A DNA stretch of 6,487 nucleotides, taken from IMG/VR virus record IMGVR_UViG_2917886563_000003; one strand, written 5' to 3'. How positions within the stretch are numbered: the stretch's first letter is position 1; each line of letters starts with the position of its first letter. Below are positions 3 through 6,487 of this stretch, in pieces. The translations under genes and the position numbers were made by a program. Origin of the DNA: a virus. Its lineage: Duplodnaviria > Heunggongvirae > Uroviricota > Caudoviricetes. The notes under the pieces were generated by a model. That model searched no databases, had not been told where the DNA came from, and saw nothing but the letters and a program-made list of their open reading frames with translations.

Positions 3-361
<359 letters not shown>

Positions 362-370
362 CTCGATCAG

Positions 371-1429
371 ATGAAAGATGTACGGGAGAAGGCTACTAAA
401 TCTTATGATGAGGCTGAATATGTAGTTGATAAGAAAACTGGTAAAGGAGAATGGAAGGGCGGCGATAGCGGCATCAATACTTTAATGAATGAAGGATTCC
501 TAACTAAAAAGGATCTAAAAGACTTTGCTGATAATCCGGCTGGTCTGGTTAGTAAAGCAGTTCAGGGAATGGTAGCTAAAGGCTATTCAGATGCACAAAT
601 CGGTAGTCGTCTGGAAGATCTGGCTGATGATTTGATGCTCACCTCTAAATACTGGACACGCTCCGCTAAAGAAGTGGAACAATCAGCACGAGAACAACGA
701 GAATCAGGGCGCTGGGTAACGCAGGCACAACAGGAAAGCGTTATTAAATTCCGTGAACTGAATAATGCACTTAGTGGGCTTTCTGACTCACAAGGGATCG
801 CCTTTGTTGATGGCTTTATGAAATCTCTTGATCCGAAAGTGATTGAAGAGTTTAAAAAGAGCATGGTTGCAATGCTGCCAATGTTTACCAAATTAGGCGA
901 GGCTGTAGGCGGTCTACTTAATGCGATCATGAAAACTATCAACTGGTTGATGAAAAACGACGAGAAGACGGCAGCTATTCAGAAGAATTTAGGGGATGCA
1001 CCGCCACTATCTAACGAAGGAATGAAACAGAATCTTTCTAATCTCACTCCTGATCAATATAAAGGCGCTGGCACCGGAACAATTAAGCCAGATAACAGCA
1101 ATTCCCTGGTTAACACTATTAAAAGCTGGTTTATGCCAGAAGAAACGGTAGGTGGGGCGCAGGCTGTAAATCAATACAGTCTCGAAGGACAAAACATTGC
1201 AAATCTGAAACAGAGTGCAGCACAACAAGCTCTCAAGGCTCCTTCTTACACCTTTGCACCTGTTATTCACTTCAATCCAGAATTACAAGTAAATGCAGAA
1301 GTGCCGCTAACTATCGAATCAGACACCGGACGATTGAGCGAATTTATCGACTTCAAATCAAAGGCATCCTCCGCTGAGTTTAGCAAGCTATTAACGCTGG
1401 GTGTTATGTCAGGCGGGTCAACCTATTAA
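371..1429 (+). CDS. Hypothetical protein, probably a 5'-truncated gene fragment interrupted by the IS; possibly the C-terminal part of a phage tail tape-measure-like protein (weak)
   Basis: Long open frame ending TAA at 1427-1429. The frame is open back to 332, right through the IS terminus; the first ATG is at 371 with no recognisable Shine-Dalgarno upstream. The protein is rich in K/E/Q/A with likely helical stretches (e.g. LGEAVGGLLNAIMKTINWLMKN) and no catalytic motif I can name. The track's start at 347 is a TTG alternative. Confidence 0.6.
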   Translation: MKDVREKATKSYDEAEYVVDKKTGKGEWKGGDSGINTLMNEGFLTKKDLKDFADNPAGLVSKAVQGMVAKGYSDAQIGSRLEDLADDLMLTSKYWTRSAKEVEQSAREQRESGRWVTQAQQESVIKFRELNNALSGLSDSQGIAFVDGFMKSLDPKVIEEFKKSMVAMLPMFTKLGEAVGGLLNAIMKTINWLMKNDEKTAAIQKNLGDAPPLSNEGMKQNLSNLTPDQYKGAGTGTIKPDNSNSLVNTIKSWFMPEETVGGAQAVNQYSLEGQNIANLKQSAAQQALKAPSYTFAPVIHFNPELQVNAEVPLTIESDTGRLSEFIDFKSKASSAEFSKLLTLGVMSGGSTY

Positions 1430-1476
1430 TCATCGCTGTGGGGCTGTTTAGCCCCCTTAAATAAGGATTACAAATT

Positions 1477-2154
1477 ATGGCAATGGGTCCGTTAACCATT
1501 GGTCGCCCGACTGAGGCGAAAATCAACAGCACAAGCAACGATAGCAACGGTAGAACAACTAAAGGGGGTAACGGCTTTGCGATCATTGCCTCTAACCTCG
1601 GCAGTGGTGCAAATGCTGCTTACAATGACTACCAGGCATTATCATTTGATAGCGTGGAATCGACGAAAATTAGCAGAAATGCAGACGTTACAAGCTATGC
1701 TGTCGAATCAGGATCAGAAGTTAGTGATCATGTTCAAATACGGAATAACAAGTTCACATTACAGGGGCGTATCTCTGAAACCGTATTGAAGCTCAATCCC
1801 GATATGATTAAGAATGCGGGAATTAACGGCAATAGACGTATGCTTATGCTTGAATACCTAAATCAGTTGATGGACAGTCGCCAACCTTTCCTACTTGTCA
1901 CTGAGTTAAAAAATTATGACAACGTTGTGTTAGTGGGTATGGACTTCGAAGAAGAAGCAAGCGAAAGCCTATTGTTTACTCTTGATTTTGAGCAAATCCG
2001 TCTTGTCTCTAAAGCAACTACAAGCGCAATTGCGGTAAAAACAGCACCAAATAAATCTGTAGGAGGCCAGGTTAAAATGCAGGTAAATACAACAGAACAG
2101 AAAAATCAAAAAAGCCCAGGGCAAGACGTTGTAACGCCAGTATTTAAACAATAG
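1477..2154 (+). CDS. Hypothetical protein (225 aa), likely a phage structural/tail-associated protein; function not recognisable
   Basis: ATG at 1477 preceded by AAGGA at 1463-1467 (good RBS spacing). Starts 48 bp after the upstream gene on the same strand, ends TAG at 2152-2154 and is followed by a hairpin terminator. The S/T/N/G-rich composition suggests a beta-rich structural protein. Confidence 0.75.
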   Translation: MAMGPLTIGRPTEAKINSTSNDSNGRTTKGGNGFAIIASNLGSGANAAYNDYQALSFDSVESTKISRNADVTSYAVESGSEVSDHVQIRNNKFTLQGRISETVLKLNPDMIKNAGINGNRRMLMLEYLNQLMDSRQPFLLVTELKNYDNVVLVGMDFEEEASESLLFTLDFEQIRLVSKATTSAIAVKTAPNKSVGGQVKMQVNTTEQKNQKSPGQDVVTPVFKQ

Positions 2155-2195
2155 CCTTAAACGCCTATGAAACGCTCTGTAACGAGATAATCATA

Positions 2196-2227
2196 AAAGA
2201 GGCATCAGTCTATATTGAAGCCTCTTT
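2196..2227. terminator. Probable bidirectional intrinsic terminator between convergent genes
   Basis: Perfect 8-bp inverted repeat AAAGAGGC (2196-2203) / GCCTCTTT (2220-2227) with a 16-nt loop, followed by TTTATT on the plus strand and preceded by AAAA (a T-run on the minus strand). It sits between the stop at 2154 and the integrase stop at 2235. Confidence 0.55.
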
Positions 2228-2234
2228 ATTACGT

Positions 2235-3506
2235 CTATAGCGTTGTTTTACGCCTTAAATTTGATTTTTTATTGATTGATAAGCCTTTCTCTATTTCAGG
2301 GTAGCGTAAAAGCTCAATATATTTTTTAAGCTCTACTGGAGAAGCTGCATTCTTGCTATATGTGCGGAATGTTTCTGTATTGCCGCGCTGATGGCCCAAA
2401 ATTAAGGCTATGCGGTCCTCTGGAATTTGATTTCGATCAAGAAGCTGTGCTACTCCGTGTCTCAGAGAATGAAACACTTTCCTTTCTGTTCCCTTTTCCC
2501 CTAAAGCCTTTCGTTTAGCTCTTGTAAATCGTTGTGTATGCCACGTAGAGCGTTTACCGTCAGCACGCTCTGTAATGCTGGCGTGATAGAACAAAAAGCC
2601 ATTGTGAGGCTTTTCACGAAGAGATAACACCAATGGAGTGATAAGGCTATGCACAGGCACAAGACGTGCCGCAGCTTTCGTTTTTCCCTGTGTGATTTCA
2701 AAACACAGCACACCTTCGATCTCTTTCACATCGTCTATTGTGAGACTTGCTATCTCGTTGATCCGCATCCCTGTATACATTCCGATCAGTGTTATATTTT
2801 GCATTTCTTCTTCATCAGCCAGCATTGAGAACACTTTTGCGAGTTCATCATTGCTAAAGGCTTCATAATTCACCTTGCTACTTTTAGCTTCAAGGCCGTG
2901 ACCTCGCCAAGGATTATCTTGTGGTGCATCGTGATAGCGGTTACGAGCAAGATCCCAGATCTGGGCTAATGCACTGATGTAGTTTTGTATTGTTTGTGGT
3001 GCTTTCTCATTTTTTAGGTCATCTAACCAGCTAGTAACAATAGTTCGGTTAACGTCACGAAGCTGAACATCGCGTTTATTCAGATGTTCTAAGAGCACTT
3101 CTACAGCCTTGTTTGTCTTTGATAGCGTGGTGAGTTTGCGCTTCTCGCTGAACTGGAGAATGTATTGATCACGCATCCTCAAGAGGGAAGGGCAACCAAT
3201 AGAAGAATCATTAAATGATTCAGATACTTGAAATACATATGTTCCAGCTTTCCGTAGTTCTGTAATAATTTGCTCGATCTTCGATGTTTTCTCACGTTGA
3301 GGCTTTAGCTTGTTACGTAGTTTTATCCATTCCAGCGCCACCGCATCACGGAACAACCGTGCTTCTCGAATATCTCTTGTACCCGTGCTCTTAACGTAGC
3401 TGCATCGCCCACCAAATAGATGACGCATATACTTAGGTATAGCGATCCTTACCAGATAGTTTCCGCAAGAATCTGAAATTAAATAGCGATCTCTCTTGAA
3501 ACTCAT
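2235..3506 (-). CDS. int: Site-specific tyrosine recombinase / phage-type integrase (423 aa)
   Basis: Minus-strand ORF with ATG at 3506-3504. The C-terminal catalytic domain has the tyrosine-recombinase signature: box I Arg (TGMRINEIASL), Lys in GKTKAAARLVPVH, box II HSLRHGVAQ, then LGHQRGNTETFRTYSKN carrying the nucleophile Tyr. The N-terminal region resembles an arm/core-binding SAM-like domain of P4-type integrases. Confidence 0.93.
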   Translation of the reverse strand: MSFKRDRYLISDSCGNYLVRIAIPKYMRHLFGGRCSYVKSTGTRDIREARLFRDAVALEWIKLRNKLKPQREKTSKIEQIITELRKAGTYVFQVSESFNDSSIGCPSLLRMRDQYILQFSEKRKLTTLSKTNKAVEVLLEHLNKRDVQLRDVNRTIVTSWLDDLKNEKAPQTIQNYISALAQIWDLARNRYHDAPQDNPWRGHGLEAKSSKVNYEAFSNDELAKVFSMLADEEEMQNITLIGMYTGMRINEIASLTIDDVKEIEGVLCFEITQGKTKAAARLVPVHSLITPLVLSLREKPHNGFLFYHASITERADGKRSTWHTQRFTRAKRKALGEKGTERKVFHSLRHGVAQLLDRNQIPEDRIALILGHQRGNTETFRTYSKNAASPVELKKYIELLRYPEIEKGLSINKKSNLRRKTTL

Positions 3507-3545
3507 ACAAACCCCGGCTATTTTGTCAGGGCTTTTGCACTTGAT

Positions 3546-3573
3546 AGTGTACAGTGTGAAGTGTCGATGTGTT
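3546..3573. repeat. Four tandem heptamers (AGTGTAC AGTGTGA AGTGTCG ATGTGTT) in the int upstream region
   Basis: Read directly from the sequence: three perfect AGTGT cores at 7-bp periodicity plus a degenerate fourth, 40-67 bp upstream of the int start codon and about 70 bp from the tRNA-like core. Confidence 0.5.
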
Positions 3574-3642
3574 GTTAGTTTTGCTTTTGATTCAAAGCAT
3601 TACAGGAGCTTGCTAGGCAAGCGAACGACCGTAGAAATACGT

Positions 3643-3669
3643 GCCGGTTCGAGTCCGGCCTTCGCACCA
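3643..3669 (+). other. tRNA 3'-end-like fragment (T-arm + acceptor 3' strand + CCA); putative att core or island junction, not a complete tRNA gene
   Basis: GCCGG-TTCGAGT-CCGGC forms a canonical T-stem/T-loop (GGTTCGAGTCC), followed by CTTCGCA-CCA. No complementary 5' acceptor strand, D-arm or anticodon arm can be folded from the ~90 nt upstream, so only the 3' part of a tRNA is present. It lies 137 bp upstream of int, on the opposite strand. Confidence 0.5.
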
Positions 3670-3682
3670 AAAGTATGTAAAT

Positions 3683-3707
3683 AGACCTCAACTGAGGTCT
3701 TTTTTTT
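3683..3707 (+). terminator. Rho-independent terminator immediately downstream of the tRNA-like 3' end
   Basis: Stem AGACCTC (3683-3689) / GAGGTCT (3694-3700) with loop AACT, followed by a run of seven T (3701-3707). Confidence 0.7.
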
Positions 3708-3974
3708 ATGCCTGAAATTCACGCCACACAAATCTTTTCCGCTGTTTTTTTCCAACTAACGTCAACCTGGTTCAATCCATATTAAATCCCTTAAGAATAC
3801 CGAACCAAGTATGTTTGCGCTTATCTATTAAGGATTCGGCTCTTTCAGAAAATCTAATCCATCCTCCAGGCACAATATTTATTGCGATCGTGCTCGCATC
3901 GTGGACAATGTTTAATCATAAGTAATATTTACATCAATGAAATCAATGATTTCTATTATGTCACGGAATGGAAA

Positions 3975-6197
3975 ATGGACAGCAATACATTGGGATTCAC
4001 TTCATACTGGCGCAACTCCTTAGCTGACGCCGAATCTGGTAAAGGAACGTTTTCACGTAAAGATATAGATTCATTCATTCGATGGATAAATATCACTGCA
4101 GGGCAGTTGGATGACGAGACTATTCGGGCATTTTTTGACGGTGAAGGGGAGTCGGTAAAAACCGTTGAAGTCGTGTTACGGCCCCAGGTGTGGAACCGCA
4201 TAGTAAAGCATGGCAAAGAGCAAATGGCAGGTGCCCCCGCAATTATCACGCCACTGGTTACCTCCGCTCTTCTGAATAGGGAAGGTTTTTTGTTTCCTGC
4301 TGCTTCAGCCACTATTCCCCGCGATCTGCTTGAACCTCTCCCTTCCGGTCATTTTTCTATTGGTGAGTTGGCTCAATATGACAAATACAAAACCACGCAT
4401 AGCACAGCCACCATTAATGAAGATGAACCAGAACATTACGAAGAAACTGACGAAGAGAAAGCGGAACGCCATGCCAGGTATCGTCAGCATTGGCAAAATT
4501 ATCTTCAACAGTCAGATAACCTTTTAAGAAACGTCGCTGGAAATTGGGTCGCTACATCTGAGCCATACGAACGGGCTGGATACGGTTATATTGTTAAAGC
4601 TAGCCAGCATGTAGGGGCCAGCGTTCATATCCTGCCTATGTATGACCATCTTCTGATGAGTCAGGTTAAGGTTCCGCTATTAACGCGTTTTGCCTCAAAC
4701 GAAATGGCTCCAGTGGAGCCACTTCTCGCTAAGAATGCGATGTTCTGCGAACGTCTGGGGCATTCCGGCGATAAGTTTCCGCTGGCAGTGGCGCAGCGCG
4801 ATGCCCTGAGCCATTATCTGACTCAACAGCAGGGTGATATGCTCGCTGTCAACGGTCCTCCGGGAACGGGTAAAACTACGCTGGTGCTTTCTATTATTGC
4901 CACCGAATGGACAAGAGCCGCACTTAATCAAACTGAACCTCCTGTAATTATTGCCACATCGACTAACAATCAGGCCGTCACCAATATTATTGAAGCCTTT
5001 GGAAAAGATTTCTCTACTGGTTTTGGCGTAATGTCTGGGCGTTGGTTGCCGGAGGTAATAAGCTATGGCGCTTATTTTCCGTCTAAAAGCCGTCAGGTTG
5101 AGGCAGCGAAGAAATACCAGACTGAAGATTTTTTTAACCGCGTTGAATCCCAGGAATATCTGGAAAAAGCCCGGGCCTTTTACCTTGAAAAAGCGGAGGC
5201 GGCGTTTGGAGCTGGAGAGTGCAATTCGCCAGAGCATGTAGTGACGCTTTTGCATGAACGTTTAACTTCACAGTTTATGCAACTTCAGCAAATCGAACCC
5301 GCATGGCGCAGACTCAATGATATCCGCCATGAACAGCGAGTCATCAGTGAGAATCTCGACCAGTATCTTCAGGACAAAAACACACTTCTTCTCAATATTG
5401 GTAATGAAATTTCACTTTTGGCCAGAGGTAAAAAGCAGTGGCAGCAATACCGTGCCGATGAGTCGCTTATGTATGCATTTTTGTCATGGCTCCCTGCTGT
5501 TCGTGCTAAACGCCATTACCAGATTAACCTCTTCCTGGACTCTACGTTCGGCACAAGAATGACAGCGTTCCAGGGAAATTGTCCCGAAGATATTGATAAA
5601 TTTATCGATAGTTTGATCGCTAAAGCACAACAAGAGCAGGCGGTGTGCCAACAGAATATCAACTTTGCGCAGGACATAGCCCGAAGCGAAATGGAAGCAG
5701 CAAAACAATGGCGCGGGTTGACTTATGCTCTGGGCTACAGGGGAGACGATGAGCTGAACCTCGCCGGAGCGGACGAGCTTGCCGATACTCAGATTCGTTT
5801 TCCAGCGTTCTTGTTAGCGACTCATTATTGGGAAGGTCGCTGGCTGATGGATATGGCGGCAATCGATAACCTGCAAAAAGAAAAAGGAATTACCGGGACA
5901 ACTATCGCCGAGGCTCGTTGGCTAAGAAGAATGAAACTTACTCCTTGTGTGGTAATGACCTGCTACATGTTGCCTTACCATATGAACAGGAGAAAATCTT
6001 TTGGTGGGGACAGAACATCGGATAATAATTATTTATATAACTTTGCCGATTTACTGATTGTCGATGAAGCAGGGCAGGTACTCCCGGAGGTTGCTGCGGC
6101 CTCTTTTGCATTGGCGAAGAAAGCACTGGTGATTGGCGATACGGAGCAAATAGCTCCAATCTGGAATGATGTAGCCCCCAGAAACACCGGACAGTAG
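3975..6197 (+). CDS. Large P-loop NTPase with SF1B (Upf1/Dna2/RecD-like) helicase motifs I, Ia, II and III and an uncharacterised N-terminal region; apparently 3'-truncated by the IS2-like insertion (740 aa as read)
   Basis: Open frame from 3882 (TTG) or 3975 (first ATG, preferred) to TAG at 6195-6197. Walker A GPPGTGKTT at 4854-4880; motif Ia-like PPVIIATSTNNQAVTNIIEAF; Walker B/motif II LLIVDEAGQ (DEAGQ at 6063-6077); motif III VIGDTEQIAPIW at 6129-6164. The ORF stops 10 codons after motif III with no motifs IV-VI, and the stop lies within or at the edge of the IS2-like left terminus. Confidence 0.8.
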   Translation: MDSNTLGFTSYWRNSLADAESGKGTFSRKDIDSFIRWINITAGQLDDETIRAFFDGEGESVKTVEVVLRPQVWNRIVKHGKEQMAGAPAIITPLVTSALLNREGFLFPAASATIPRDLLEPLPSGHFSIGELAQYDKYKTTHSTATINEDEPEHYEETDEEKAERHARYRQHWQNYLQQSDNLLRNVAGNWVATSEPYERAGYGYIVKASQHVGASVHILPMYDHLLMSQVKVPLLTRFASNEMAPVEPLLAKNAMFCERLGHSGDKFPLAVAQRDALSHYLTQQQGDMLAVNGPPGTGKTTLVLSIIATEWTRAALNQTEPPVIIATSTNNQAVTNIIEAFGKDFSTGFGVMSGRWLPEVISYGAYFPSKSRQVEAAKKYQTEDFFNRVESQEYLEKARAFYLEKAEAAFGAGECNSPEHVVTLLHERLTSQFMQLQQIEPAWRRLNDIRHEQRVISENLDQYLQDKNTLLLNIGNEISLLARGKKQWQQYRADESLMYAFLSWLPAVRAKRHYQINLFLDSTFGTRMTAFQGNCPEDIDKFIDSLIAKAQQEQAVCQQNINFAQDIARSEMEAAKQWRGLTYALGYRGDDELNLAGADELADTQIRFPAFLLATHYWEGRWLMDMAAIDNLQKEKGITGTTIAEARWLRRMKLTPCVVMTCYMLPYHMNRRKSFGGDRTSDNNYLYNFADLLIVDEAGQVLPEVAAASFALAKKALVIGDTEQIAPIWNDVAPRNTGQ

Positions 6198-6487
6198 CTG
6201 TATCTCCAGATAAGAGATAGGCTTGAATATATGTCTAACACTAACGCCAATTTTGAGATGACCGGGATCCTGTTAGGGCAAGAAGTCCGTAAACGTAAAA
6301 CTCCTCAGGAGAAAATCGCCATTATCCAGCAGAACGATGGAGCCGGGTATGAATGTCTCCCATGTCGCCCGCCTGCATGGTATCCAGCCCAGCCTGCTGT
6401 TTAAATGGAAGAAGCAATATCAGGAAGGCAGCCTCACCGCCGTTGCGGCCGGAGAGGAAGTCGTTCCTGCTTCTGAGCTTACAGCTG
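6172..6487 (+). mobile_element. Left-hand portion of an IS3-family, IS2-group insertion sequence; continues beyond the right window edge
   Basis: The region 6172-6230 contains TAGCCCCCAG...CTGTATCTCCAGATAAG, resembling the IS2 left terminal repeat as recalled (TAGACTGGCCCCCTGAATCTCCAGACAA). It is followed by an orfA-like reading frame whose product aligns with IS2 InsC. The left boundary is uncertain, somewhere in 6167-6195. Confidence 0.75.
6258..6487 (+). pseudogene. IS2-like transposase OrfA (HTH DNA-binding protein), apparently frameshifted; 3' end outside the window
   Basis: From ATG 6258 (or 6231) the frame reads [26 protein letters not shown], then runs into [22 protein letters not shown] (stop 6402-6404). 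From 6337 the +1 frame reads [50 protein letters not shown] to the window end. Both halves match IS2 InsC as recalled ([65 protein letters not shown]), implying a 1-nt insertion near 6336-6340 (GATGGAG). Confidence 0.65.

Follow-up and report, generated by a model that had tools for sequence, protein, structure and literature searches.

A displaced leuX 3′ end very probably marks the attR junction of an integrative element with a non-P4 tyrosine integrase

Genomic islands that integrate at tRNA genes are delimited by a regenerated tDNA and a displaced tDNA fragment, which mark the island ends, and can form tandem arrays (Hudson, Lau & Williams 2015, PMC4383910). In the islands catalogued there, the displaced fragment lies downstream of the regenerated tRNA gene in the same orientation, a tyrosine integrase is encoded in the interval, tandem arrays occur at the same tRNA gene in related genomes, and a small deletion near the discriminator is a known kind of 'damage' (PMC4383910). 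The integrase and the small deletion were also observed at the locus described here, and the regenerated gene upstream and the tandem arrays in related genomes. Nothing essential distinguishes the locus from the Islander type; its particulars are an identity block of 43 nt that spans from the anticodon-stem end to the CCA, and a decayed 5′ half of the tRNA gene that was kept. The tRNA gene concerned, leuX, is a known anchor of many unrelated mobile elements (PMC9009780; PMC7545054). A hypervariable leuX-anchored region of E. coli and Salmonella was described by Bishop et al. (2005), as that work is cited in PMC9009780; to the extent of that citation, our locus belongs to the same hotspot, with unrelated mobile elements and with defence cargo comprising BREX, Kiwa, restriction-modification (R-M) as well as the Mokosh-type yjhR. 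P4-like islands at leuX (P4 prophage, KpLE2/intB and the PAI II-536 type) share the leuX 3′-end target with the element described below, and the attR of a P4-like island in AF16 is followed by the same terminator-yjhR flank.

The window, by which we mean the whole 6,487-nt stretch of DNA that was analysed, contains the following features.

1–361, no strand assigned: end of an IS3-family insertion sequence, which cuts the left side of the island ('IS3 family transposase' regions of numerous E. coli chromosomes and plasmids match at 99.7%)
362–3627, no strand assigned: integrative element ('Element A'), 3.3 kb from its right-hand side, 97–99% identical in E. coli EC13, CE0021a, AR Bank #0349 and 2016C-3878
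347–1429, plus strand: tape-measure-like gene, C-terminal 360 codons of 614 aa, cut by the insertion sequence (full-length homologue in CE0021a, L001 19212–21056)
1477–2154, plus strand: gene for a Dit-like phage tail protein, RefSeq 'phage baseplate protein' (PF21821 Dit_like, 2.4e-27; PHROG 817, 1.8e-33)
2235–3506, minus strand: tyrosine integrase, 423 aa, transcribed away from the att site (PF00589 at 1.2e-16, DUF6538 (PF20172) and Phage_int_SAM_5)
3628–3669, plus strand: leuX 3′ identity block with variable arm, T-arm, acceptor 3′ strand and CCA (43/43 direct repeat in CE0021a and E1739)
3670–3718, plus strand: native leuX 3′ flank with intrinsic terminator (same sequence after the intact leuX of MFDS1022581)
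3975–6167, plus strand: helicase gene yjhR of Mokosh MkoC type, of whose 1171 codons the first ~731 are left, cut by an insertion sequence (98–99% identical to annotated yjhR)
6168–6487, no strand assigned: start of a different IS3-family insertion sequence, which cuts yjhR (about 98% match to 'IS3 family transposase' regions)

Positions 3628–3669 on the plus strand correspond to the last 43 nt of E. coli leuX, the gene for tRNA-Leu with anticodon CAA, except that one G is missing, which gives a match of 42/43 nt over a length of 42 nt; in related genomes, the match is 43/43. A first-pass annotation, which was based on the letters of this stretch, had recognised a T-arm, an acceptor 3′ strand and CCA followed at once by a strong terminator, and had proposed that the 3′ fragment of a tRNA or tmRNA was retained as an att core. 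Each of these parts is present: the T-arm GCCGG-TTCGAGT-CCGGC at 3643–3659, the acceptor 3′ strand CTTCG-C at 3660–3665, the discriminator A at 3666 and CCA at 3667–3669. The absent base is one G of the acceptor GG, at 3664/3665. Comparison with the tRNA genes of related genomes identified the fragment as the leuX 3′ end, and a tmRNA origin was rejected because ARAGORN reported no tmRNA and the sequence is that of leuX. A fragment should go undetected as a complete tRNA, and this was the outcome: ARAGORN found neither tRNA nor tmRNA in the window (0 genes), and the window gave 0 Rfam matches at the gathering threshold. The top sub-threshold tRNA-type match in Rfam was a forced tRNA-Sec alignment (18.8 bits, E = 0.26; gathering score 47), and a tRNA was called at 0 of the 11 attR copies examined. 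A complete tRNA masked by an insert was considered and discarded on the basis of the detector scores and the lost D-arm. Because the T-arm motif is short, one might suppose a chance resemblance beside an unrelated terminator, a supposition for which we found no other support. The 42–43 nt of contiguous identity to leuX, a 24-nt core that is present once in the window and in 0/200 shuffles, and the repeat of the block at both element ends in two genomes leave chance with essentially no probability.

Given this identity, we consider it very probable that 3628–3669 is a displaced leuX 3′ fragment at the attR junction of an integrative element of 10–13 kb. In CE0021a (L001), the intact leuX and the fragment form a perfect 43-nt direct repeat, the two copies being 12,854 bp apart. 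An identical 43-nt direct repeat was found in E1739 (L014), with a spacing of 10,380 bp. The left copy in both genomes is an intact leuX that is recognised by ARAGORN. Within the window itself, no second copy of the core was found even when 3 mismatches were allowed; the second copy that the first-pass annotation expected nearby is the intact leuX, 12.9 kb (CE0021a) or 10.4 kb (E1739) to the left. The order in CE0021a is intact leuX, a 12.85-kb element with the integrase as its last gene on the minus strand, the arm, the 43-nt leuX end and the terminator, and the 3.3-kb stretch shared with the window forms the right end of this 12,854-bp element bounded by the 43-nt direct repeats. The E1739 element is related and has other cargo, an Eco29kI-type R-M system and Kiwa. 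In both genomes, the integrase is located just inside attR and reads away from it. Because an insertion sequence replaces the left part of the window's element at 361/362, its attL is deduced from the related genomes only.

The empty site provides the complementary evidence. In MFDS1022581 and three other strains that lack the element, leuX, the terminator and yjhR are contiguous, indicating that the terminator and yjhR are host flank and lie outside the island. The question raised by the first-pass annotation, whether the helicase gene belongs to the integrase-carrying element, is therefore answered in the negative, and its proposal of an att core at an island boundary, more precisely a distal junction that holds the partial copy, with host sequence on its right, agrees with both the repeats and the empty site. 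Sequence to the left of 3628 moves with the element across at least five genera, and sequence to the right of the CCA varies with the host context. When the window was compared by megablast with 5,426 complete E. coli genomes, the alignments split at this place: positions 362/374 to ~3720 matched a 'hypothetical protein / phage baseplate protein / site-specific integrase' block in few strains, island homology beginning at 362 or 374, and positions 3628/3647 to 6167 matched 'tRNA-Leu / helicase YjhR'. The exact element-yjhR junction of the window was found in 0/5,426 complete E. coli genomes. The map of the window is fixed by these comparisons, with the island ending at 3627–3669, mobile-element DNA from 362 to ~3627, and the terminator and yjhR as host flank.

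The terminator noted in the first-pass annotation was recovered by a terminator scan as the hairpin AGACCTC-AACT-GAGGTCT at 3683–3700, with a 7-bp stem and a 4-nt loop, directly followed by T8 at 3701–3708. By its sequence, this arrangement of a hairpin and an adjoining U-tract is predicted to act as an intrinsic (Rho-independent) terminator; the predicted fold has an energy of -14.3 kcal/mol (z = -4.8), and 0/200 shuffles were as stable. Relative to MFDS1022581, the flank has a T-run of 8 instead of 7 and one substitution at its 3′ end (...GAAATTC in the window versus ...GAAATCC). The yjhR start codon is at 3975, homology to yjhR ends at 6167, and the product matches the PADLOC model MkoC (1.3e-249). 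Because only the first ~731 of 1171 codons are left, the remainder having been cut off by an IS3-family element, this defence gene is probably inactive in this genome.

The junction might also be read as an attP that has not recombined and is located on an extrachromosomal or plasmid-borne element, in which case the terminator and the helicase would be the element's own. Such a reading would fit the IS3-family ends that bracket 362–6167 and the occurrence of a related int-attR segment on large E. coli plasmids. However, 3670–6167 runs collinear to the leuX terminator and yjhR on the chromosomes of strains without any element, and the CCA at the other end of the element joins quite different sequence in the two reference genomes, TCAGCACTAATC... 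in CE0021a and TCTACATATTTTCC... in E1739. This host collinearity and the differing joins at the other end argue that the junction is a recombinant attR, even if the piece was moved later, and make an unrecombined attP highly improbable.

The displaced fragment and its integrase differ from those of P4-like islands in several respects. A P4-like integrase adjoins the intact tRNA gene and is co-oriented with it, whereas the integrase of the window is located at the fragment end and points away, as the first-pass annotation had correctly remarked when it contrasted the divergent tRNA-like strand with the co-oriented P4-like layout. P4-like integrases, such as those neighbouring the element in L001 and L008, contain Arm-DNA-bind_3 (DUF4102) and Phage_int_M, in contrast to the combination of DUF6538, SAM_5 and PF00589 in the window integrase. 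Thus, the window has neither the integrase domains of a P4-like island nor an integrase that is adjacent to and co-oriented with a tRNA gene, and a non-P4 integrase, whose N-terminus is DUF6538 rather than Arm-DNA-bind_3, accounts for the non-P4 orientation. The displaced fragment also differs in length, being ~22 nt, from T-loop to CCA, in the P4-like island of AF16 and 43 nt in the family of the window element. Tandem islands, which the first-pass annotation had offered as another explanation of the orientation, do occur at leuX in several related genomes, where P4-like integrases lie beside leuX, but not in the window, where yjhR follows directly.

The integrases of the relatives have the same domain architecture as that of the window, and none of the integrases in the phage collection was >28% identical to it. 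A literature search for 'DUF6538' returned no papers, and no description of this 10–13 kb element family was found in the searchable literature. Because of the integrase identities of at most 28% and the lack of a DUF6538 paper, the family seems undescribed, though its kind is ordinary. The junction is an ordinary, well-understood signature of island integration and a routine feature in an island family that may not have been described before. What it adds is that leuX serves as the target of a second integrase family, of non-P4 type, with the integrase at the opposite island end, and that the cargo of these non-P4 leuX elements is phage-tail-like or anti-phage (Kiwa, R-M). Island annotation profits from this; no concept is changed.

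The element side of the junction was analysed by aligning 12 attR arms, which came from the window, six E. coli loci (one of them plasmid-captured), one IMG/VR contig, Buttiauxella, Scandinavium, Pseudenterobacter and Franconibacter. In the window, the arm consists of the following parts.

3507–3627, plus strand: element-side arm of attR (P arm of attP), which is also the upstream region of int; conserved with the element and not with the host flank at 12 loci
3563–3596, plus strand: decayed copy of leuX positions 1–37, from local alignment to leuX 1–41
3597–3627, plus strand: 31-nt insert relative to leuX, in place of positions 38–41, from alignment with leuX

The first-pass annotation had seen no foldable 5′ half of the tRNA. 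Functionally this stands, but a decayed leuX 5′ half is recognisable at 3563–3596, with a remnant of the acceptor 5′ strand (GTCGATG, 3563–3569) and a remnant of the anticodon stem-loop (TTGATTCAAA, 3587–3596). The local alignment of the window to leuX 1–41 scored 24 compared with 15.3 ± 2.7 for shuffles (p about 0.01), and the scores of the UViG and E1739 arms were 37–38, which were reached by 0/3000 shuffles. Most relatives retain GCAGTTGATTCAAA, which is leuX positions 24–37; the UViG arm retains GCCGGAGTGGC, for which leuX has GCCGAAGTGGC, and the E1739 arm retains AGTGGCGAA. The 31-nt insert carries the palindrome GCTTGC-TAG-GCAAGC at 3608–3622 (GCTTGC-N3-GCAAGC). It is recognisable in 12/12 arms, although strongly diverged in KE47, and the five-pair stem GCTTG/CAAGC is kept in 11 of them, KE47 having one mismatched pair. 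The simplest reading of these alignments is that the arm would be an old full-length leuX copy whose 5′ part decayed and gained the 31-nt insert. An ancestor of the element may have captured the whole of leuX, of which the part that regenerates the gene and binds the integrase would have stayed identical while the rest drifts.

We also weighed the possibility that 3563–3669 is the gene for a functional tRNA-like RNA, a leuX paralogue that would have an intron-like 31-nt insert after anticodon-loop position 37 and would use the leuX terminator. Across the 12 loci, 96% of cells retain pairing between the remnant of the acceptor 5′ strand and the 3′ strand, the four transition-type acceptor changes that were seen all give G-U pairs, the insert occupies the canonical 37/38 intron position and has a conserved hairpin, and the tRNA-Sec model can be aligned, weakly, over the full length (18.8 bits). 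In contrast to these features, the results of ARAGORN and of Rfam at gathering were negative, promoter-like sites are no commoner than in shuffles, and the acceptor stem of the window copy has one transversion as well as the 1-nt deletion. In addition, no D-arm can be recognised, the window clade, E1739 and KE47 have a disrupted pseudo-anticodon stem, the z-score of the fold is only -1.5, and compensatory double changes were absent among the arms, in which the 3′ strand is held constant by its match to the host gene. With invariant 3′ strands, an RNA structure cannot gain support from covariation. The absence of compensatory changes, the loss of the D-arm, the unconserved pseudo-anticodon stem and the z-score of -1.5 led us not to regard the locus as a functional RNA, an interpretation that has very little probability.

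A related proposal is that the acceptor 5′ strand, the anticodon stem-loop remnant and the palindromic insert form a maintained module, either a tRNA-like RNA or a protein-binding architecture (Int arm, IHF and excisionase sites) that would set the direction of recombination. In most lineages the acceptor 5′ strand has changed only by wobble-preserving transitions, the anticodon stem-loop remnant is invariant, and these two parts and the insert are common to at least five enterobacterial genera. Even so, we judge this module unlikely and favour a decayed leuX copy. Such a decayed full-length copy with a conserved insert, like the recurrent acceptor-strand damage described below, is a minor curiosity.

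Two further blocks in the arm are conserved. AAACCCCGGCTATTTTGTCAGGGCTTTTGCAC (3510–3540) lies directly upstream of the integrase start codon and is near-invariant in 12/12 arms, including the most diverged of them, whose arm identity is 58%. An imperfect hairpin that it can form overlaps a likely ribosome-binding GGGG on the minus strand, and a role in controlling the translation or transcription of int is possible. TTGATTCAAAGCATTAC (3587–3603), made up of the leuX anticodon-loop remnant and the first part of the insert, is conserved in the majority of arms. It fits, with one mismatch, the IHF consensus (WATCAANNNNTTR), and a host factor might bend the P arm at this site.

The comparisons show the flanking repeats, the unoccupied site, the integrase and the arm's homology to leuX; the recombination chemistry is proposed to be as follows. 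The tyrosine integrase of the element would recombine attP, which would carry leuX-derived sequence, with the final 43 bp of leuX on the chromosome (attB). Integration would rebuild a complete leuX at the far end (attL), and the integrase end would keep a hybrid attR. The left part of this attR, 3507–3627 and the left portion of the identity block, would be element DNA, and the right part, comprising the rest of the identity block, the leuX terminator and yjhR, would be original host sequence. Because it has neither its own promoter nor a functional 5′ half, the fragment would be a recombination scar and substrate rather than a gene. The crossover presumably took place somewhere inside the identity block, in its T-arm/acceptor part (3640–3669): in the distant KE47 relative, leuX identity begins only at CGTGCCGG (window 3640), which would place the crossover at or to the right of 3640.

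Damage to the block concentrates in the acceptor 3′ strand and was located at the following positions.

3660–3669 of the window: acceptor-strand damage
2340–2355 of L011: acceptor-strand damage
7150–7180 of L015: acceptor-strand damage
2951–3034 of L016: acceptor-strand damage
2951–3034 of L017: acceptor-strand damage

The one-G deletion (CTTCG-CACCA) is present in the window, in a Pseudenterobacter attR with an arm of another subtype and in E. coli strain 582, and the last of these has the 8-nt unit CTTCGCAC in three tandem copies. This pattern hints at strand exchange near the T/acceptor junction. The candidates for the overlap region are the T-loop and the acceptor segment CTTCGGCAC, and the damage suggests the latter. 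The one-G deletion may be recombination-linked damage, with sequencing error possible in single cases. Strains 702/18 and BS-04 also have it, in this case in a resident leuX of full length whose ARAGORN call is displaced by 1 nt, and the damage was possibly passed to the resident gene through island excision. Together, the deletion and the 8-nt triplication may mark the staggered-cut region of the integrase, from which damage may be exportable into leuX by excision.

The attP junction predicted from these comparisons is ...GCAAGCGAACG-[43 nt]-TCAGCAC... Exact-pattern scans found no copy of the predicted full attP in metagenome contigs, no copy of the left junction shared by attL and attP in viral contigs, and no copy of the exact G-deleted junction in metagenome and viral contigs. 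The IMG/VR contig L008 was considered as a possible attP and rejected, since it is one more tandem array and has a P4-like island downstream. Because an IS3-family element replaced the left part of the window's element, the latter has probably lost the ability to excise in this genome. The terminal repeat at ~339–361 of this insertion sequence looks IS911-like when compared with what we take to be the IS911 inverted repeat. Two different IS3-family ends bracket the whole segment, so that the int-attR-yjhR′ piece could have been mobilised or rearranged. On large E. coli plasmids, a related int-attR piece was found beside a BREX island (L003).

The cargo next to the integrase (window 347–2154, plus strand; L001 17793–21781) is phage-structural in flavour. 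The full-length tape-measure-like homologue in CE0021a matched PHROG 16051, 'tail length tape measure protein' (2e-27). No Pfam or PADLOC match was found for the tape-measure-like protein, and the PADLOC defence models did not match the Dit-like cargo either. The same cargo includes a weak major-head-like protein (PHROG 29, 1e-4), which is annotated as 'major capsid protein' in strain 582. In the E1739 relative, this slot is occupied by the Kiwa defence genes kwaAB. Element A could be a degraded prophage, a satellite or a carrier of a tail-derived defence module.

Four to five iteron-like repeats (ACCCNNACAGAANNNTGTTA) are present inside Element A at L001 12613–12755, upstream of a gene weakly similar to phage replication-initiator (O-like) proteins. 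These repeats and the O-like gene suggest that Element A can replicate after excision. The left, attL-side arms of the CE0021a and E1739 elements (L001 10540–10600 and L014 12530–12590) share the conserved block AAAAGCCACTGTG.TTGTTAATGGCTTTGGTATGTTA.CAC.CAGTGGC, with an inverted repeat of 9 bp ~100–150 nt from the CCA. This shared block could be an element-supplied terminator for the regenerated leuX or a binding region of the P′ arm.
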